A DNA stretch of 64,000 nucleotides, taken from an uncultured Acidobacteriota bacterium (GTDB lineage Bacteria; Acidobacteriota; Terriglobia; Terriglobales; Acidobacteriaceae). The stretch covers positions 154,421 to 218,420 of the forward strand of contig CAWKLF010000008.1 of NCBI GenBank assembly GCA_963850425.1, in the 5' to 3' direction. The position numbers and the translations under genes were made by a program. The notes under the pieces are model-generated. The model was not told the DNA's origin, made no database searches, and saw nothing but the letters and a program-made list of their open reading frames with translations. Below are positions 8,790-39,207 of the stretch, one piece after another. The first letter of the stretch is position 1, and each line of letters opens with the position of its first letter.

Positions 8790-9176
8790 TCAGAGAGCTG
8801 CGCCGAGCAGGCTATACATCAAGACCGCGAGCACAAAACTGGCCACTCCGACATAAAGCCAGTCACGCTCAAGCGCGAATGCAATGGCAGAAAAGGCGAC
8901 GCGCGCAACGGGGGTCGCGATCAGGAAGAGAATTCCAAGCTGAATGATGCCCCGCCCGTGCAGGGTACTTGCAGAGCGAAGAATCCCCTTCCACTGTCTG
9001 AGGTCAGATGGCTCGCCTGCGAAAGCGCGGTAGTGAGTGGGAGCAAGTCCGTGCCGAACGAGAAAGACGAGACCTCCGATGACCACTACCACCGCCGCCA
9101 AGGTCACGCCCGTGCGCAACAGGTTGGCGATCACGACTTCCATTTTGTGATCGGTCCAGTCAGCCTTTCGGAACAT
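8790..9176 (-). CDS. DUF1634-family small membrane protein
   Basis: 128 aa with 3-4 TM helices. Immediately downstream of a TauE/SafE permease, which is the usual partner arrangement. Confidence 0.6.
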   Translation of the reverse strand: MFRKADWTDHKMEVVIANLLRTGVTLAAVVVVIGGLVFLVRHGLAPTHYRAFAGEPSDLRQWKGILRSASTLHGRGIIQLGILFLIATPVARVAFSAIAFALERDWLYVGVASFVLAVLMYSLLGAAL

Positions 9177-9178
9177 AG

Positions 9179-10015
9179 TTAAATCTTCCCCGAAAGGGCG
9201 CCATACAGCATTTCGCCACCCAGTGCCACGATTACCGCAGCGAAGACCCAGCGCAATTGTTGTGTCTTAGTGCGTGCAAGCATTCGCGCTCCGACGAGCG
9301 AACCTGCAAGCACTCCTAGCACGACCGGCATTGCTAGTCCGGGATCGACGTAGCCGCGACTCAGGTAGACACCGGCGCTAGCCGCGGCTGTGACCCCGAT
9401 CATAAAGTTGCTGGTCGTCGTGGATACTTTGAAAGGGATGCCCATGGCGCGGTCCATCGCAAGAACTTTGACGGCTCCGGAACCAATGCCCAATAGGCCA
9501 GACAGGGCGCCTGCTCCGAACATTAAACCAAATCCGGCCGGAACGCGGTGAACGTAGTAGGCCTTTGGCCCAGCCAGCGATGGATAAACTCCGTTCATTC
9601 CAAGACGCGTCGCCAACGGGTCAGGAGGGTCGTCGGCGGGAACCTCCACCGGAGTTCTGCTCGAGGCATAGCCAGAATAAAGAAGAACGAGGCCGAAGAC
9701 CGCGCCGATCGCCGCCGTTGATACACGAGCTGCTAGAAATGCTCCAAAAAGTGCACCCAGCGTAGTCGCCACTTCCAGGAACATGCCAATCCGGATATTG
9801 GAGAAACCATCCTTCAGGTAAGCCACCGCAGCTCCTGATGACGTAGCAATCACTGATACCAAAGAGGCCCCCACGGCATACCGGATGTCCACCTTGAAAA
9901 CAAGAGTCAGCAGTGGGACGAGCACCACGCCTCCGCCTAGTCCCGTTAGCGCGCCCAGGAATCCCGCCATGAACGAGCCTAGGCCGACCAGGAACGTGAA
10001 CTCGAGATTGTTCAT
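9179..10015 (-). CDS. TauE/SafE-family sulfite/organosulfonate exporter-type permease
   Basis: 278 aa, polytopic and Gly-rich (GALTGLGGGVVLVPLL, and the repeat GLLGIGSGAV), typical of the TauE family. Confidence 0.7.
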   Translation of the reverse strand: MNNLEFTFLVGLGSFMAGFLGALTGLGGGVVLVPLLTLVFKVDIRYAVGASLVSVIATSSGAAVAYLKDGFSNIRIGMFLEVATTLGALFGAFLAARVSTAAIGAVFGLVLLYSGYASSRTPVEVPADDPPDPLATRLGMNGVYPSLAGPKAYYVHRVPAGFGLMFGAGALSGLLGIGSGAVKVLAMDRAMGIPFKVSTTTSNFMIGVTAAASAGVYLSRGYVDPGLAMPVVLGVLAGSLVGARMLARTKTQQLRWVFAAVIVALGGEMLYGALSGKI

Positions 10016-10172: not shown

Positions 10173-10934
10173 TTACGATCCGCCAGATAAGCCGATTTGG
10201 ACCAGCGGCACGTTCGCAGCGGGCGCGTCGGGTAAGTGCAGTCCGCACTCCGTCTTTTGAAATCCCGCCCAGCGGCCGGCGCGGGGATCTTCTCCTGGCC
10301 GAACCGCTCGGGTGCAATGGGTGCATCCGATGCTCGTGTAATTTGCGTCGTGCAGAGGATTGTATGGGACGTTGTTTTCGCGGATGTAGTCCCATACGTC
10401 ATCATTGGTCCAATCCGCAATGGGGTTGATCTTGACCAGCTGAAACTTCTGATCCCACTCAACCTTCCGGGCATTCGCCCGCTCCTTGGTCTGATCGCGC
10501 CGGATGGCGGTGATCCATGCCCGCAGCGAACTTAGCTTCTCTTTGAGCGGCTCAACTTTGCGCAAGGAGCAGCATTGATCGGGGTTCGTCGACCACAGCG
10601 CTTCTCCGTAGACTTCGGCTTGATCGGACGGCGTAAGCCGCGGCTGCACCCTCTCCACCTCAACTCCATAACGGCTCTCCACTTCGCCGATGAGCTGGTA
10701 GGTTTCGGGAAACAGAAATCCGGTATCGATGGTGAAAACGCGCAGCGAGGGATTGAGGCGAGCGGCGATGTCAATCAACGCCATGCCCTCCGGGCCGAAT
10801 CCGGACGCCATCTCGATGGTAGGGCCGAAGGTGCGGAATGACCATGCGAGCACTTCTTGCGGCGTCCAACCTTCTGCGATTTCCTGCGTTTCTTTCAGAT
10901 GCTTGATCACCGTCTCCACTCCAGGCGTTCCCAA
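10173..10934 (-). CDS. cysH: Assimilatory adenylyl-sulfate/PAPS reductase (Fe-S type)
   Basis: 253 aa. Has the CCSLRKVEPL and IGCTHCT cysteine pairs plus the C-terminal ECGLH catalytic motif. Confidence 0.85.
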   Translation of the reverse strand: MGTPGVETVIKHLKETQEIAEGWTPQEVLAWSFRTFGPTIEMASGFGPEGMALIDIAARLNPSLRVFTIDTGFLFPETYQLIGEVESRYGVEVERVQPRLTPSDQAEVYGEALWSTNPDQCCSLRKVEPLKEKLSSLRAWITAIRRDQTKERANARKVEWDQKFQLVKINPIADWTNDDVWDYIRENNVPYNPLHDANYTSIGCTHCTRAVRPGEDPRAGRWAGFQKTECGLHLPDAPAANVPLVQIGLSGGS

Positions 10935-11734
10935 AGCTCACGGGTGGCGAAAACGAATTGCGGCTCGCCAGCCCGGTGGATCGGCTGCGCTGACTTCCAC
11001 GAAGCCAATTCAACTTCCTCGACCACCGGCGCTGAGGCCAGAACCTCTCCAATCAACAAAAGCGTCGGTGCCGGCAGCTGCGGCGCTCCGGCCAATTCAG
11101 CGACCGTTGTCCGGTGAACCTGCTGTGCCTTTGAAGTTGCTCGTGAGACGATCGCACACGGTGTCGCGGGATTCATGCCGGCGCCAATCAACTGATCAGC
11201 CGTTTCGCCATAGTGAAAACCGGGCATGTAAACCGCAAGGGTCGCTCCCGATGCAACGTAGGCCGGCCAGGCCACTGCTTGTTCGGGATTCGCAGGATGA
11301 CTTGAGAGAAGGATCACTGCGGATGATTTGTCGCGGTGCGTAAGGGAGACGTGCGCCGCGGCGGCGGATGCAAGCGCCGAAGTCACGCCCGGAACAACTT
11401 CAAACTCGACGCTTGCTTTACCGAGAGCGTCCATTTCTTCGCCTCCCCGGCCGAAGATCGAAGGATCACCGCCCTTCAGACGAACCACCTGCAAACCGAA
11501 CGACGCGAAAGCGATCAGGAGTGCATTGATCTCCAGCTGCGGCGTACTCTTTCTGCCGCAACGTTTGCCGACGTTGCGGATATGCGCCGTGGCGGGAATC
11601 AATTCCAGAATTTCGGAGCTGATCAGATCATCGTGCAGGACGACGTCAGCGCTCCGGATTAACTTGAGAGCTTTGACGGTCAGCAAATCGGGATCGCCAG
11701 GACCCGCTCCGACGAGAAACACCTTACCGTTCAT
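10907..11734 (-). CDS. cobA: Uroporphyrinogen-III C-methyltransferase (SUMT)
   Basis: The ORF track gives 10907..11803. I place the start at ATG 11734 (MNGKVFLVGAGPGDPDLLTVKALKLIRSADVVLHDDL). It overlaps the upstream gene by 11 nt and cysH by 28 nt. Confidence 0.8.
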   Translation of the reverse strand: MNGKVFLVGAGPGDPDLLTVKALKLIRSADVVLHDDLISSEILELIPATAHIRNVGKRCGRKSTPQLEINALLIAFASFGLQVVRLKGGDPSIFGRGGEEMDALGKASVEFEVVPGVTSALASAAAAHVSLTHRDKSSAVILLSSHPANPEQAVAWPAYVASGATLAVYMPGFHYGETADQLIGAGMNPATPCAIVSRATSKAQQVHRTTVAELAGAPQLPAPTLLLIGEVLASAPVVEEVELASWKSAQPIHRAGEPQFVFATRELWERLEWRR

Positions 11735-12341
11735 GCGCGGCCTCCGGCACAAGGACGTCGCCGGGAAGGGTTGCATCAAAGGGCCTGCGCGCGGCCCATT
11801 CATGCAGCACCTTTCGCCGGTAATCCGGATTCAATGCCCGCCGGAATAGCTGGCTGCGAATCTTGCCCAGTTGCTCGATCCAGCCCGCGTAAAACGGCGC
11901 CAGTTGACCTTCAAATTCGCGGCGCAGCTTTTGCGCGAGTGCGGGACTCTTTCCTTCGGTGGAAATCGCAACCTGGAGAGCTCCACGCCGAACCACCGCT
12001 GGGTAATAGAAGTCGCAGCGGTCGGGGTCGTCCACCACGTTGCAGAGAATCTGACGGCGGGTAGCCTCGCGGTACACCAGATCGTTTATCGCAACTGAAG
12101 ACGTGGCGCTAATCACCAAAAAGATCGCATCAAGATCGGATGCTTCAAACTCGCGGGCTTCCCACGTGAGGACTCCCGTACGCGCCCAGCCAGCGACGGC
12201 AGGAGTCACCCAAGGAGCGACAACCCGAACCTTGGCATGAGCGACCAACAAGCTGCGAATCTTCGATTCACCAATCTTGCCGGCTCCCACCACCAAGCAC
12301 GACCGGCCTTCGAGTTTCAGGAACATTGGAAAAAGACTCAT
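11724..12341 (-). CDS. Precorrin-2 dehydrogenase / sirohydrochlorin ferrochelatase (CysG N-terminal-type, SirC/Met8-like)
   Basis: 205 aa. N-terminal MFLKLEGRSCLVVGAGKIG NAD-binding motif. Sits between sir and cobA. Confidence 0.75.
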   Translation of the reverse strand: MSLFPMFLKLEGRSCLVVGAGKIGESKIRSLLVAHAKVRVVAPWVTPAVAGWARTGVLTWEAREFEASDLDAIFLVISATSSVAINDLVYREATRRQILCNVVDDPDRCDFYYPAVVRRGALQVAISTEGKSPALAQKLRREFEGQLAPFYAGWIEQLGKIRSQLFRRALNPDYRRKVLHEWAARRPFDATLPGDVLVPEAAHER

Positions 12342-12359: not shown

Positions 12360-14063
12360 CTATCCTTCAATTCCGTGCGGCACCCGCCCCGGCGACGGAT
12401 CGCGCAATACTGGGCCGATCCACTCCCCTGCCAAACACTCGCGCATCTCTTCATCACTATGGCGTGCAAAGAACTGGCGCAGGTTTTCTTTCGGGCGCCG
12501 ATCGTCGAGATAACGACGCAGTAGTCGCTCGATGGCATCGGGCACTTCACTGGCCAGGCAGCGATATCCGACCGCGCGTGCAATTGATTGGTGCACCCCT
12601 ACCGCTCCGCCGACGCAGAAGTAATAAGCGTCCTGCATGCGATCGCCTACCTTGATCTTCTTGCCCTCGATGCCAATGTCGGCGATCCAATGTTGGCCGC
12701 AACTGTTCGGGCAGCCGGTGACGTGCAGTTTCAGGTGCTGCTCAAATCCAGGAAGCCGCTCTTCCAGTTCCTCGACCAGCCAGCGTGAGAAAGCCTTGGT
12801 TTCGGTGATCGCAAGCTTGCAGAATTCGGAGCCGCTGCACGCAATTGCGCCCCGCCAGAAGGCCGAACCCTGCACAGGCATGCCGGCGGCAGTCAGCTCT
12901 TTTGCCAGCGGATCGACGTTCTCGCGCGGAACGTTCACAACGATTAAGTTCTGCATGTTGGTGATGCGGACTTCGCCGGTTGCCATACGATCCGCCAGAT
13001 CAGCGGCAGTCTGCATTTGCGCCGCTGAAATTCTTCCCCGCAACACCGCAGCACCCAGATAGAACTGGCCGGCCTGTTTCTGAGCATGGATACCAACGTG
13101 ATCGCGGTACACATCGTCTGGTGGTTGCTCGTCCGCAGCAGGTTCGAGTTTGAAACCGATGCGCTTCTCGAGTTCTCGTTGAAAGGTTTCCGCAGTCCAG
13201 CCATGGCGTAAAAATAGAAATTTCAAACGGGCGCGTTCGCGATTCTCGCGGAGGACATCGCTGTCACGGAAAATCTCGGCGATGCCCCGCAGGACCGGGA
13301 TAACCTCGCTTTGTCGCACGAATGCGTTAAGCCGGGTTGCAAGATGAGGATCAGCAGAAAGCCCTCCCGCGACCCGCAGCGAGAACCCAATTTCATTTTG
13401 GCTACGCAGCCGGCGGGTTACAGCAGTGAGTCCAACGTCATTAATCTCCGGATAAGCGCACCACGAGCGGCATCCCGTGATGCAAATCTTGAACTTTCGG
13501 GGGAGGTTGTAAAACTCGGCGTTGCCCACGAAGAAGCGGTTCGCCTCAAGTGCCAGGGCTGAGGCATCGAAAATCTCTTCGGCATCGACTCCGGCCAGCG
13601 GGCAACCTGTGATATTGCGTGTGTCGTCACCGCAGGAGCCTTTTGTCGTGAGTCCTGCTCCCCACAGGCTGTCGAGAACTTCGGGGAGGGCTTCAATCGT
13701 CACCCAATGTAACTGGATGTTTTGCCGGACCGTGAGGTCCGCATTCCCACGAGCGTAACGTTCAGTGACTTCAGCAATGGTGCGCAGTTGGTGAGCCTGC
13801 AACAAGCCGTTCGGTATCCGGATGCGCACCATGAAGTACGGCAGAGCTTTCCCCTCACCGTTCTTCCCTCCGACGACGCCCGCGCCATCGCCCTGGGTGT
13901 AAACGCCCCACCAACGGAAATATGTACCGATCCATTCCGGGGGAATTGCGGTGAAACCTTCCCGCGCGAACTGGCGAATCTCGTCGAGGCCCTCCCACGG
14001 GTTGCGCTCCCGTTTGAGCCGCTCGACACGTTGCGCTTTCGTTTCTTTGGCTGGAATTGTCAT
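12360..14063 (-). CDS. sir: Ferredoxin-type sulfite (nitrite/sulfite) reductase hemoprotein
   Basis: 567 aa. Two NIR_SIR repeats, with a siroheme/4Fe-4S cysteine cluster (CSGSEFCKLAITETK ... VTGCPNSCGQHW). Confidence 0.85.
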   Translation of the reverse strand: MTIPAKETKAQRVERLKRERNPWEGLDEIRQFAREGFTAIPPEWIGTYFRWWGVYTQGDGAGVVGGKNGEGKALPYFMVRIRIPNGLLQAHQLRTIAEVTERYARGNADLTVRQNIQLHWVTIEALPEVLDSLWGAGLTTKGSCGDDTRNITGCPLAGVDAEEIFDASALALEANRFFVGNAEFYNLPRKFKICITGCRSWCAYPEINDVGLTAVTRRLRSQNEIGFSLRVAGGLSADPHLATRLNAFVRQSEVIPVLRGIAEIFRDSDVLRENRERARLKFLFLRHGWTAETFQRELEKRIGFKLEPAADEQPPDDVYRDHVGIHAQKQAGQFYLGAAVLRGRISAAQMQTAADLADRMATGEVRITNMQNLIVVNVPRENVDPLAKELTAAGMPVQGSAFWRGAIACSGSEFCKLAITETKAFSRWLVEELEERLPGFEQHLKLHVTGCPNSCGQHWIADIGIEGKKIKVGDRMQDAYYFCVGGAVGVHQSIARAVGYRCLASEVPDAIERLLRRYLDDRRPKENLRQFFARHSDEEMRECLAGEWIGPVLRDPSPGRVPHGIEG

Positions 14064-14107
14064 AAATGCAAAAAGCCCACCGCCAGTTTGTCTACTGGCG
14101 GTGGGCT
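14064..14107 (-). terminator. Intrinsic-terminator-like hairpin immediately upstream of the sir start codon (attenuator)
   Basis: The minus strand reads AGCCCACCGCCAGT-agacaa-ACTGGCGGTGGGCT (14107->14074, a 14-bp perfect stem), then TTTTGCATTT, then the sir ATG (14063). The only purine-rich SD-like stretch (GGTGGG) lies inside the 3' arm. Confidence 0.7.
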
Positions 14108-14133
14108 GATAATTGCTGATTCTTAATGACTTA

Positions 14134-14226
14134 TTACGTCAGCAGCCTCCCAGTGCCAGAAGACACGTGTGCGCAACAACAAGTACAACAACACATCGTG
14201 GAGGTCTGGCGAGAGGCCAACATCAT
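14134..14226 (-). promoter_or_regulatory. Cysteine-rich leader peptide ORF (MMLASRQTSTMCCCTCCCAHVSSGTGRLLT*)
   Basis: Hand translation of the minus strand: atg atg ttg gcc tct cgc cag acc tcc acg atg tgt tgt tgt act tgt tgt tgc gca cac ... taa. Six Cys codons fall in a 7-codon run (14193-14173). It lies between a strong promoter and the terminator hairpin, upstream of the sulfate-to-sulfide (cysteine precursor) operon. Confidence 0.65.
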
Positions 14227-14232
14227 CGGCAG

Positions 14233-14261
14233 ATACTAGAGGGAAACCAGGATCCTGTCAA
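14233..14261 (-). promoter_or_regulatory. Sigma70-like promoter for the cys leader / sir operon
   Basis: The minus strand reads TTGACA (14261-14256), a 17-nt spacer, then TAGTAT (14238-14233). The first leader ATG (14226) lies 6 nt after the -10 element. Confidence 0.55.
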
Positions 14262-14339: not shown

Positions 14340-14368
14340 TTGACGAGCATTCCAAGCTGGATTATTGT
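14340..14368 (+). promoter_or_regulatory. Sigma70-like promoter for the his leader / his operon
   Basis: TTGACG (14340-14345), a 17-nt spacer, then TATTGT (14363-14368). The leader ATG lies 11 nt downstream. Confidence 0.5.
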
Positions 14369-14379
14369 GTGGAAGTCCG

Positions 14380-14448
14380 ATGCTGACCCATCGCCATCAC
14401 CGCCATCATCATCACGCGCACAGCGCGTTGGCGGCGGTGCCGGTCTAA
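14380..14448 (+). promoter_or_regulatory. hisL: Histidine operon leader peptide ORF (MLTHRHHRHHHHAHSALAAVPV*)
   Basis: Hand translation gives 8 His among codons 4-14. It is followed 29 nt later by an intrinsic terminator and then hisI. Confidence 0.85.
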
Positions 14449-14476
14449 GTCTGACTTAAGCACTCATCGAATCACG

Positions 14477-14519
14477 AGCCCGCTGACGCGAAAGCTTCAG
14501 CGGGCTTTTCTTTTTCTGC
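14477..14519 (+). terminator. his attenuator terminator
   Basis: AGCCCGCTGA (14477-86) pairs with TCAGCGGGCT (14497-506). There is an inner GC pair and a GAAA loop, then TTTCTTTTTCT. The hisI RBS (GGGGGAG) and ATG follow at 14530. Confidence 0.8.
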
Positions 14520-14529
14520 GGGGGAGAAT

Positions 14530-14895
14530 ATGGACATGAAGATCGATTTCGAAAAGATGCAGGGGCTGGTACCGGCTATTGTGCAGGACAAGGATACGGA
14601 GCAGGTCCTCATGCTGGGTTTCATGAATGAGCAGGCCTTTGCGCGCACTCTGGCATGCGGGTACGTCACATTCTTCAGCCGGACTCGCAATGAGCTTTGG
14701 ACCAAGGGTGAGACTTCCGGCAACCGGCTGAAAGTTCTTTCGATCAGCACCGATTGTGATCGCGATACTTTCCTGGTCCAGGTCCAGGTCGAGGGCGCAG
14801 GAGTCGTCTGCCATCTCGGAACCCGATCGTGTTTTACCGAGAGTCTGCCGATCGCGCCCCTGGCGATTGCCGGACCGCAGGAGGCAAAGCGATGA
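14530..14895 (+). CDS. hisI: Phosphoribosyl-AMP cyclohydrolase (monofunctional; no HisE domain)
   Basis: 121 aa: [26 protein letters not shown]...[13 protein letters not shown]...[11 protein letters not shown]. Confidence 0.9.
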
Positions 14896-15761
14896 AACTG
14901 CGATTGGGAATCCCCAAGGGCAGCCTTCAGGAAGCCACACTGCATCTGTTCGCGCGCGCCGGGTTGCGTGTTTATACAAACGCGCGCTCGTATTTCGCCT
15001 CCACCGGCGATCCGGATATCGAATGCATGCTGATTCGCGCACAGGAGATGGCGCGTTACGTGGAACACGGCGCCCTGGACGCCGGACTCACCGGCATTGA
15101 CTGGGTGGTAGAGAGCGGCCTCGAAGTTGTCCCGGTCGCCGACTTGATTTACGCGAAACAAAGTCGCGGAAAAGTCCGATGGGTACTCGCCGCTCCCGAG
15201 GACTCCGCGTTCCAACGAGCAGAAGACCTCGCTGGCAAGATCATCGCAACTGAACTGGTGAACGTCACTCGCAACTACTTCCGGGCCAGGAATGTAGACG
15301 TCCAAGTCGAGTTTTCCTGGGGCGCAACTGAAGTGAAACCTCCCATGCTCGCGGACGCGATCGTCGAAGTGACCGAGACCGGCAGTTCCCTGCGAGCTAA
15401 TCGGCTCCGCATTCTCGATACTGTGCTCGAGTCCAACACCCAAATTATCGCGAACCGTTCAGCATGGGCGGATAGTGAACGGCGGCGTAAGATCGAAAAT
15501 CTCGCATTGATGCTCCGCGGGGCGATGGAAGCCCAGGATCGCGTCGGACTGATGCTCAACGTGCGCAAACAGGATTTGAATGGCGTTTTAGCGGTATTGC
15601 CCGCCTTGCAGAATCCGACAATCTCGACGCTGAGTGACAGCGACTGGATGGCCGTCAACACCGTCATCGAGGAATCCGCGGCGTGGCAAGTGATTCCCCG
15701 CCTGAAGGCAGCACAAGCGGAGGGCATTGTCGAGTATCCGCTGAACAAGGTGGTGATGTGA
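14892..15761 (+). CDS. hisG: ATP phosphoribosyltransferase (long form)
   Basis: Start placed at ATG 14892 ([20 protein letters not shown]), with an ATGA overlap with hisI. The ORF-track start at 14829 lies inside hisI. Confidence 0.9.
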
Positions 15762-38286: not shown

Positions 38287-39207
38287 ATGCTTATCGATCA
38301 CACCCACCGCAAATGGCTCGTCGGCAGCATGGCAGTCTTGGTTGTGGCGGGAGCGACTTACATTCCCTACAGCCTTCGCTCGCCACAAGGACCGCGCGGT
38401 AGCAGTGTTCCGGGAATCGTTTACGGAAGCGTCGGATTTGCGTTCATGCTGTTCGCAGGCCTCTTGGGGCTGCGCAAGAAATTTCCCGTCTGGCGCATCG
38501 GACGGGCCAAGGCGTGGATGCGCGGCCATCTCTGGCTGGGCTTTATAAGTTTTCCGCTCATTCTCCTGCATGGCGGCTTCCACTTCGGCGGCCCACTGAC
38601 GCGTGTCCTGATGTGGCTGTTCGTTTTTGTCTTTGCCAGCGGAATTCTGGGAGCCGCCCTGCAACACTTCCTTCCGCGCCTTCACACAGCCCAACTTCCA
38701 ATGGAAACCATCTACGAGCAGATCGACCGGGTTCGCGGCCAGCTTATGGAGGAAGCCGAACGAGTGGTGAAGGAATCGTGCGCAGCTCTCGAAGGCGACG
38801 TCCCCAGCGCAACCGAACGGCAACGGGCCGCGGCGGCATCGGCGGGAGCCAGCTGGGATGTAACGGTTGCCTCCGGCATGCAAGTGGACGAGCAAGCGAG
38901 TGCTGAACTGCGCCGCGTGCTTTCCGCTGAAATCTGTCCTTACCTGAGTAAGGCAGGAGCGCGAACTGCCCGGATCGCAGATCCGCAAGTTGCTAGCGCA
39001 CTATTCCGTCAGCTGCGCGTGTTGCTGCCGGCGACCTTGCATCCGAATATGGACGATCTGGAAAACATCTGCGAAGAAAAACGCCAGCTCGATAAGCAGA
39101 ACCGGCTTCACAAGATTTTGCATGGCTGGCTGCTGGTTCACGTGCCCATCTCCTACGCATTAATTCTGCTCGGAGCATGGCACGCAATCGTGGCTCTGAG
39201 ATTCTAG
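38287..39207 (+). CDS. Integral membrane protein, 5 predicted TM helices with conserved-looking histidines (possible b-heme/quinone subunit); family not recognised
   Basis: 306 aa. Helices around WLVGSMAVLVVAG, GIVYGSVGFAFMLFAGLL, HLWLGFISFPLILLHGGFHF, VLMWLFVFVFASGILGAALQHF and LHGWLLVHVPISYALILLGAWHAIVAL. A ~150-aa soluble loop precedes the last helix. Spacing is 5 nt after the upstream gene and 10 nt before the next. Confidence 0.55.
   Translation: MLIDHTHRKWLVGSMAVLVVAGATYIPYSLRSPQGPRGSSVPGIVYGSVGFAFMLFAGLLGLRKKFPVWRIGRAKAWMRGHLWLGFISFPLILLHGGFHFGGPLTRVLMWLFVFVFASGILGAALQHFLPRLHTAQLPMETIYEQIDRVRGQLMEEAERVVKESCAALEGDVPSATERQRAAAASAGASWDVTVASGMQVDEQASAELRRVLSAEICPYLSKAGARTARIADPQVASALFRQLRVLLPATLHPNMDDLENICEEKRQLDKQNRLHKILHGWLLVHVPISYALILLGAWHAIVALRF

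Follow-up and report, generated by a model that had tools for sequence, protein, structure and literature searches.

In this study, we analysed a stretch of 64,000 nt (hereafter the window, meaning the whole of that stretch) from a Terriglobales (Acidobacteriota) genome and characterised a leader element on its minus strand, located directly upstream of sir, the gene of a ferredoxin-type sulfite/nitrite reductase. Our conclusion, drawn from the sequence of the element and of its relatives and given a probability of about 85%, is that this Cys leader is likely to be a ribosome-mediated (leader-peptide) transcription attenuator that would read charged tRNA-Cys and control read-through into sir, cysG(N), cobA and cysH. 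A preliminary description of the same DNA had proposed a Cys-sensing attenuator at this position, and the proposal is supported by the conservation of the element in 81 of 81 loci, the maintenance of its reading frame, the invariance of its geometry and the mutually exclusive pairings of its RNA. The element consists of a short open reading frame (sORF) with a run of cysteine codons and of four pairing regions, the last two of which form a terminator hairpin. Its parts, all on the minus strand, are as follows, where MFE denotes minimum free energy and A2 the alignment of the window with its relatives described below.

14256–14261, minus strand: −35 hexamer TTGACA (promoter scan); TTGAC(A/G/C) is kept in 76/81 loci, 17–18 nt from the −10 hexamer
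14233–14238, minus strand: −10 hexamer TAGTAT (promoter scan); the TAnnnT column is conserved in alignment A2
14134–14226, minus strand: leader open reading frame (ORF) of 30 codons from the first ATG, with the stop codon TAA at 14134–14136 (ORF list)
14205–14221, minus strand: region 1 (GUUGGCCUCUCGCCAGA), which pairs with region 2 when the ribosome is absent (MFE folds)
14173–14193, minus strand: Cys codon run TGT TGT TGT ACT TGT TGT TGC, with 6 Cys in 7 codons, 5 TGT and 1 TGC (sequence inspection)
14139–14161, minus strand: region 2 (UUCUGGCACUGGGAGGCUGCUGA), the 3' end of the ORF and partner of region 1 or region 3; its nucleotides are nearly invariant, third codon positions included
14095–14119, minus strand: region 3 (UCAGCA...AGCCCACCGCCAG), which pairs with region 2 in the anti-terminator (2:3 pairing) and supplies the 5' arm of the terminator
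14074–14107, minus strand: intrinsic terminator hairpin (3:4) of 14 bp with 10 GC pairs and a 6-nt loop, −28.2 kcal/mol (terminator scan)
14064–14073, minus strand: U-tract (TTTTTGCATTT region) running into the sir ATG; a T-run is present in all 81 loci (sequence)
12360–14063, minus strand: sir, ferredoxin-type sulfite/nitrite reductase and first regulated gene (NCBIfam NirA / ferredoxin-nitrite-reductase families, E about 1e-115)

A sORF with a Cys run was found upstream of sir in all 80 of the related loci with which the window was compared, for example with the leader peptides MLASSQTFTVCCCTCCCAHVSSGTGRLLT, MSASCLTRCQCCTCCCMCVSTGARGLLT, MMSFSNLRQTCMCACCCCACVCSGAGRLLT and MFDQYQKNFDCMCCCTCCCAVVSSGAGRLLT. 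These loci were the best 80, at species level, of at least 590 sir loci from a sir profile search (sir 73–95% identical), and with the window they make up the 81-locus set of alignment A2. The closest sir homologs and the related loci come from Terriglobales/Terriglobia genomes that were assembled from soil and peat metagenomes. Mean column identity across the 81 sequences of A2 is 58%, with sharply conserved blocks. In the 5' part the blocks are the −35 and −10 boxes, the ATG, the TGY run and CTGGCGnnGGGAGGnnGCTGACnTAR, and in the 3' part they are TCAGCAnTTAT followed by CCCACCGCCAG, a loop, CTGGCGGTGGG and then the T-run.

A scan of metagenomes with the region-2 motif returned at least 120 stretches. 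Approximately 93 of those listed carry a Cys run, and sir is the next gene in nearly all that have enough downstream sequence (68–87% identity), the lowest sir identity at which the leader was still present being 68% (locus L189) among the matches listed. About 25 of the 120 listed motif matches have neither a Cys run nor a terminator and were treated as chance matches. On three contigs (L094, L112 and L139) the Cys leader and terminator stand directly before cysG(N)-cobA-cysH with no sir between them, an arrangement that represents a variant of the operon, with sir either missing or at another place. Therefore, the leader tracks the sulfate-assimilation operon and not sir itself.

The scale of this conservation bears on whether a Cys-rich ORF and a terminator might simply have come to lie side by side by chance, an explanation that has nothing in its favour beyond short ORFs being common. 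It is refuted by the 81 of 81 loci that keep the element, its frame and its geometry, and windows with at least five Cys codons in eight are very rare, with only a handful outside the leader in 1.5 Mb read in six frames; the probability left to chance is practically nil. No evidence of a wider Cys-leader regulon was found in the 1.5 Mb examined. A second family of Cys-run sORFs (MCCDCRCC..SG.IRTP..), present in L111 (plus strand, at about 14318) and in L132, L162 and L177 (minus strand), was rejected as an alternate frame of conserved enzyme-coding sequence (..GNVLRLSLLRSPEWPDPHAD..) that has no terminator, and such pseudo Cys-run ORFs represent a trap for automated searches for Cys leaders. 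In the window itself, a third Cys-rich stretch, at 38948–39163 on the plus strand, was dismissed as lying inside a 306-aa ORF in another frame.

The leader ORF and its predicted translation

The near-consensus promoter TTGACA-17-TAGTAT named in the preliminary description is present, agrees with the consensus at 10 of 12 positions in the promoter scan and is one of just two promoter-like sites in the 1.5 kb scanned. Also as described there, the ORF at 14226–14134 has six Cys in seven codons, five of them TGT. It encodes the peptide MMLASRQTSTMCCCTCCCAHVSSGTGRLLT and reads ATG ATG TTG GCC TCT CGC CAG ACC TCC ACG ATG TGT TGT TGT ACT TGT TGT TGC GCA CAC GTG TCT TCT GGC ACT GGG AGG CTG CTG ACG TAA. 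The ATG ATG with which it had been said to start is there, but the conserved start of the leader ORF is the second ATG (14223), whose column is kept in 74 of the 81 loci.

In the window, the −10 box ends 6 nt before the first ATG (14226) and 9 nt before the conserved one. The first ATG coincides with the predicted transcription start site, and the 5' untranslated region (UTR) would measure ~0–3 nt. Across the family, spacing from the −10 box to the conserved ATG is 6–12 nt in 76/81 loci, most often 9 or 10 (mode 10). Therefore, the predicted 5' UTR is only ~0–6 nt long, which leaves no space for a Shine-Dalgarno (SD) sequence, and translation of the sORF would have to be SD-independent. The position of the predicted −10 box would be compatible with a leaderless start of the mycobacterial type in 76 of the 81 loci.

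Across the family, the leader ORF has 26–31 codons, of which 4–10 are Cys codons (mean 7.1 over 81 leaders). TGT makes up 72% of these Cys codons, whereas its share in long ORFs is 19% for the 80 loci and 30% for the window. This preference for a rare, wobble-read codon is as would be expected of a stalling sensor.

Indications that the sORF between promoter and sir is translated come from its reading frame and from a clade in which the promoter is replaced. The ATG column was defined by its distance from the promoter, blind to the reading frame, and in 74 of 74 sequences region 2 lies at a distance from this ATG that equals 1 mod 3, with six different lengths of 55–70 nt, so that every change in the length of the leader ORF is a multiple of three. 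The clade of L060, L066, L075 and L076 is without a promoter next to the ATG and has an SD-like substitute, GAAGG or GAGGG, 7–8 nt before the sORF ATG. SD-led initiation has apparently replaced the leaderless type in the attenuator of these loci. The leader of this clade sits about 100 nt upstream of sir.

A conserved Cys-rich ORF could also encode a functional micropeptide, such as a small subunit or a peptide that binds metal or sulfur, with the hairpin being either its own terminator or an unrelated regulatory RNA, and it is true that the Cys cluster and the C-terminal ...SGAGRLLT are conserved as peptide in most loci. However, the C-terminal conservation is found at the nucleotide level. 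In the 3' part of the ORF, the codons GGC, GGG, AGG and CTG show essentially no variation at their third positions, and mean entropy over the last 13 codons is 0.62, 0.46 and 0.64 at codon positions 1, 2 and 3, respectively. The variable sites of region 2 are its positions 7–8, 14–15 and 21–22, which are predicted to be in internal loops or unpaired, and the amino acid there changes freely between L, P, K or Q. Since third positions are invariant and variation follows pairing and not codon position, peptide-level conservation of ...SGAGRLLT was rejected in favour of RNA-level constraint. In addition, the arrangement of the Cys residues varies as well as their number (4–10), the N-terminus is not conserved, and the rare TGT codon suits a stalling sensor, not efficient expression. 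A hairpin that served as the terminator of the sORF would moreover leave sir promoterless in a 10-nt gap. For these reasons, we consider a functional micropeptide very improbable.

Alternative helices and ribosome position

The 170-nt leader has an MFE of −72 kcal/mol (z = −5.2 versus dinucleotide shuffles), and prediction of alternative structures, a check that the preliminary description had put forward, recovered the three folds 1:2, 2:3 and 3:4. The last of these is the intrinsic terminator, which lies between the ORF and the first gene and corresponds to the 14-bp GC-rich hairpin (14107–14074, 10 GC pairs) that had been described as followed by a sequence running into the sir ATG; TTTTGCATTT stands between the hairpin and this ATG at 14063. 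Over the 81 loci, 96.2% of the alignment cells of the terminator are paired, whereas slid controls gave 31–51%, and compensatory changes occur at 5 of its pairs, a result matched by 0 of 500 shuffles.

The anti-terminator 2:3 is a long interrupted helix (CUGGCG/CGCCAG, GGG/CCC and UGCUGA/UCAGCA) with the stop codon in its loop. Parts of it had been recognised before as smaller structures. The segment CTGGCACTGGG does lie inside the leader ORF, after the Cys run, at 14159–14149, and it can pair with the 5' arm of the terminator over 5+4 bp as had been suggested, but the full anti-terminator extends further. Similarly, both arms of the 6-bp hairpin reported earlier are present (TGCTGA at 14144–14139 and TCAGCA at 14119–14114), but instead of a separate hairpin they form the inner stem of the larger 2:3 helix. 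In 2:3, 88.6% of cells are paired versus 30–50% in slid controls. The helix is nearly invariant, so covariation is minimal; the comparison of orthologous loci, which the preliminary description had also advocated, thus bore out the Cys-run ORF (80/80) and the terminator with its compensatory changes, but yielded little covariation for 2:3. When the leader was folded under a mask for a ribosome stalled at the last Cys codon, 2:3 was the MFE helix in all six inspected loci, which came from different clades, with an energy of −19.6 kcal/mol in the window and a mean of −21.8 kcal/mol over the 81 loci.

The protector 1:2 arises when the ORF's 5' end, with AUGUCAGC or UUCAGCAA followed by CUUCC and CGCCAG, pairs along the whole of region 2, whose other partner, region 3, it mirrors. 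The duplex energy is −23.9 kcal/mol in the window and −25.7 kcal/mol on average over the 81 loci. The base before CUGG in region 2 (T, A or G) complements the base after CCAG in region 1 of the same leader in 68 of 81 loci, compared with 12% in a cross-clade control. The leader has both an anti-terminator and a protector, and the pairings 1:2, 2:3 and 3:4 are mutually exclusive. Because of this three-way constraint, both arms of the terminator have a fixed sequence, an unusual feature in a plain terminator.

Regions 2–4 are indeed more invariant than one would expect of a simple terminator/anti-terminator pair, and this might be taken to indicate a ligand- or protein-binding, riboswitch-like leader RNA with blocks 2–4 as sensor and expression platform and with the Cys codons incidental. 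However, the three-way pairing already accounts for the invariance, and a ribosome-independent switch would not need the frame, start codon, Cys run and stop position, all of which are conserved. As there is also no match to an Rfam family on the Cys-leader strand, a riboswitch-like RNA appears very unlikely to us.

It is also conceivable that the hairpin acts on translation, as at Ms5788A in M. smegmatis, or exerts dual control, in which case it would hide the ribosome-binding region of sir, stalling at the Cys codons would expose that region and termination would be secondary. The sole polyCys sORF dissected experimentally acts on translation, and in the window only ~10 nt separate the end of the hairpin and U-tract from the sir ATG, with no SD sequence visible. 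Against this, the hairpin is a canonical intrinsic terminator, 14 bp long and GC-rich, with a U-run in 81 of 81 loci, and the Cys tract does not pair with the sir start region in any fold, being located in a local hairpin or a loop. The distance from terminator to sir ranges from ~10 to ~100 nt among the loci and is 60–100 nt in many relatives, in which the hairpin cannot cover the start of sir and is equally conserved. Because the spacing varies in this way, the conserved role would be termination and not occlusion of the sir ribosome-binding site, and we regard control that is chiefly translational as improbable.

The geometry of the leader is consistent with transcription attenuation by a translating ribosome. 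In the 81 loci, the last Cys codon ends 13 nt (range 13–16) before region 2, the distance from the start of region 2 to the stop codon is exactly 23 nt without exception (81/81), and region 3 follows the stop codon by 26–32 nt. The effect of ribosome position was modelled on the window's leader with an assumed footprint, in which the masked RNA spans −15 to +12 nt relative to the first base of the A-site codon, with the following outcomes.

No ribosome: regions 1 and 2 pair, and with region 3 left free the terminator forms
A-site at codon 19 or before (codon 18 being the last Cys): 2:3 forms, region 2 engaging 5 or 9 of the 11 bases in the core of region 3
A-site at codons 20–23: the anti-terminator is gradually lost
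A-site at codon 24 or any later one, the stop codon included: no anti-terminator

The full anti-terminator is thus seen only with the A-site at codon 19 or earlier, and its energy is −19.6 to −21.9 kcal/mol for A-sites within the Cys run. Under the assumed footprint, the regulatory codons and the stop codon are therefore placed such that a stalled ribosome would free region 2 and a finishing one would mask it.

The mechanism that we propose would proceed as follows. Transcription would start at the ATG of the ~29-codon ORF or up to ~6 nt before it, and a ribosome would load without an SD sequence and trail the polymerase. With plentiful Cys-tRNA, the ribosome would reach the stop codon and cover region 2, the 3:4 terminator would form and the transcript would end at ~150–160 nt. 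With scarce Cys-tRNA, the ribosome would stall in the Cys run, where it would cover or disrupt region 1 and halt just short of region 2; the 2:3 anti-terminator could then form, region 4 would be left unpartnered and the polymerase would proceed into sir. If no ribosome loaded, 1:2 would pair and the terminator would form, the default state being off. On a further-reaching reading, which we think rather doubtful, the leader would be a three-state device, in which untranslated or quickly translated leaders would be off and only the stalling of ribosomes at Cys codons would turn the operon on, and it would report the capacity for SD-independent initiation as well as the charging of tRNA-Cys. The ribosome would then have little time for loading at the 5' end, namely until transcription of region 2.

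Several points weigh against this reading. The core of region 1 in the window's clade lies 10–15 nt upstream of the first Cys codon, and stalling at the later Cys codons would leave region 1 exposed, with only steric arguments for why 1:2 should not re-form. The terminator (mean energy −26.6 kcal/mol over the 81 loci) is thermodynamically favoured over the anti-terminator (−21.8 kcal/mol), and the choice between them would therefore have to be kinetic and co-transcriptional, as in trp. Both 2:3 and most of the terminator are almost invariant, and what argues for 2:3 is its conservation, the slid controls and its energy, not covariation. The putative leader promoter is a consensus match only. 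From these sequence features we infer where transcription starts, that a terminated leader RNA is made, that the sORF is translated, that ribosomes stall at the Cys codons and that the leader responds to cysteine, and the model presupposes that transcription and translation are tightly coupled in Acidobacteria and that initiation on leaders of 0–6 nt is efficient there.

The sulfur operon and a divergent histidine leader

Matches to protein families confirmed that the Cys leader is followed by the operon named in the preliminary description, comprising sir, siroheme synthesis and cysH. The sir ORF encodes 567 aa from the ATG at 14063, and its homologs carry the name 'sulfite reductase (ferredoxin)'. 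No SD sequence is recognisable for sir in the window's clade, and the U-tract of the terminator reaches to within a few nt of its ATG. The genes after sir are these.

11724–12341, minus strand: cysG(N), siroheme synthase N-terminal domain protein (precorrin-2 dehydrogenase / ferrochelatase; TIGR01470, 1e-46)
10907–11803, minus strand: cobA, uroporphyrinogen-III C-methyltransferase (cobA / cysG C-terminal; NF004790, 8e-83)
10173–10934, minus strand: cysH, (P)APS reductase (NF002537, 2e-82)
9179–10015, minus strand: TauE/SafE permease, after cysH with a 157-nt gap
8790–9176, minus strand: DUF1634 protein, after the TauE/SafE permease

Sulfite reductase, siroheme synthesis and (P)APS reductase are thus the products of the operon, a pathway that matches the Cys codons in the leader. 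The TauE/SafE permease and the DUF1634 protein may be part of the sulfur operon with cysH. As listed, the cobA ORF and the siroheme-synthase gene before it have 80 nt in common; the NF004790 match of cobA begins at residue 24, and in relatives the overlap is a 4-nt ATGA. Based on the start of the family match and the overlap in relatives, the true cobA start is probably near 11727–11737, later than the ORF call.

No gene was found upstream of the leader on the minus strand, where the divergent hisG-hisD-hisC operon adjoins. Since the leader hairpin is placed between the promoter and the first gene, with no gene of the same strand upstream, it terminates nothing else. The intergenic region that the two operons share also holds a His leader, MLTHRHHRHHHHAHSALAAVPV, upstream of hisG-hisD-hisC (window 14340–14515, plus strand), with the following parts.

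14340–14368, plus strand: His leader promoter TTGACG-17-TATTGT
14380–14448, plus strand: His leader sORF, whose ATG is 11 nt after the −10 box, so that the 5' leader is also very short
14476–14515, plus strand: GC-rich terminator of the His leader

With a His run and a terminator of its own, the his operon shows the same attenuator logic as the Cys leader. The His leader is kept in 12 of the 12 loci that have his as the divergent neighbour (12 of the 80 loci), and on this strand, opposite to the Cys leader, Rfam His_leader scored 27.6 bits, below its gathering score of 49. On the further-reaching reading given above, the occurrence of the Cys leader next to a His leader would point to leader-peptide attenuation being widely used in Acidobacteria. 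A 323-aa ORF at 14472–15443 on the minus strand, antisense to the His leader terminator and hisG, has no family match and is most likely a spurious ORF call.

Comparison with known leaders

Cysteine regulons are usually attributed to protein regulators (CysB, CymR) or to T-box and S-box RNAs, and the classical leader-peptide attenuators are those of trp, his, leu, thr, ilv and pheA of Enterobacteria (Rfam His_leader, Trp_leader etc.). The Cys leader resembles the latter in having a promoter, a short ORF with a high share of codons that specify the pathway's amino acid, exclusive 1:2, 2:3 and 3:4 helices, an intrinsic terminator ahead of the first gene and a stop codon at which a ribosome finishing translation stands in the way of the anti-terminator; its preference for a rare synonymous codon is reminiscent of the leu leader. 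Unlike the classical attenuators, it would sense cysteine, belongs to Acidobacteriota and has no SD sequence, and its start codon lies 0–6 nt from the predicted transcription start, within region 1. No Rfam 15 match at gathering score was obtained anywhere in the window and no similarity of the Cys leader to any Rfam leader was detected; with E values up to 10 allowed, the only match on the Cys-leader strand was Qrr at 16.8 bits, a chance match.

To our knowledge, ribosome-mediated sensing of cysteine has been demonstrated experimentally only in mycobacteria, where it acts on translation. The preliminary description had called Cys leaders rare, which they are, but they are not unreported (PMC1262725; 10.1101/834739; PMC8632094). 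The mycobacterial polyCys sORFs comprise Ms5788A and six further loci; in M. smegmatis, such leaderless sORFs were shown by experiment to confer a response to cysteine, and attenuation by cysteine through an upstream ORF (uORF) was stated not to have been described previously (10.1101/834739, Canestrari et al. 2020). At Ms5788A, the Cys tract pairs with the SD sequence of the next gene, and the mechanism is translational with no terminator (10.1101/834739). The mycobacterial and Acidobacteriota elements are alike in that a sORF with consecutive Cys codons, leaderless in mycobacteria and predicted to be of the leaderless type in Acidobacteriota, is the first cistron of a cysteine-related operon and in the proposed sensing of tRNA-Cys charging by ribosome pausing. 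They differ in that the Cys tract does not serve as the pairing partner in the Acidobacteriota leader, which instead has a terminator and an anti-terminator. The different phylum and the lack of resemblance beyond the Cys run suggest that the two arose independently.

Two other groups of candidates are known from computational studies. In Rhodobacterales, uORFC-8-2 upstream of cysS is a predicted ribosome-mediated attenuator with a Cys-codon uORF and a terminator stem plus U-run (PMC8632094, Brewer et al. 2021). It has two tandem Cys codons (usually UGC) near positions 14–15 and a two-stem structure, and belongs to cysS and to Alphaproteobacteria. The Cys leader, with sir downstream, 4–10 Cys codons, another helix layout and another phylum, falls outside that motif, as judged from its published description only. 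In Actinobacteria, candidate leader peptides with Cys runs were found upstream of cys/cbs operons, and a Rho-dependent mechanism was suggested (PMC1262725, Seliverstov et al. 2005). No terminator or conserved hairpin was found for those candidates, whereas the Acidobacteriota leader has an explicit terminator and alternative helices.

Our search of the literature found nothing relevant on a Cys leader or uORF in Acidobacteria or before sulfite reductase, most subscription journals being outside its coverage, and almost no attenuators had been functionally assigned in Acidobacteria in 2010 (PMC2965389). It is possible, although we put this forward only tentatively and think it rather doubtful, that, among cysteine attenuators of cysteine/sulfate-assimilation operons, the Cys leader is the first of the classical, terminator-based type, with a leaderless-type sORF whose start-codon region joins the 1:2 helix. 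The leader nevertheless represents a clean, widely conserved and previously unannotated candidate cysteine attenuator in an understudied phylum, kept across a group of soil bacteria that is abundant but has received little study, and potentially a compact natural system for attenuation by SD-independent translation. For annotation, neither hypothetical protein nor plain intergenic DNA is a suitable label for the sORF and leader, and alignment A2 provides the basis for a covariance model. In relation to the known systems, the Cys leader has, at the level of sequence, every feature by which leader-peptide attenuators are recognised, and it is a new family within that known class and not a new principle, with the implication that leader-peptide attenuation would extend well beyond Proteobacteria and Actinobacteria.

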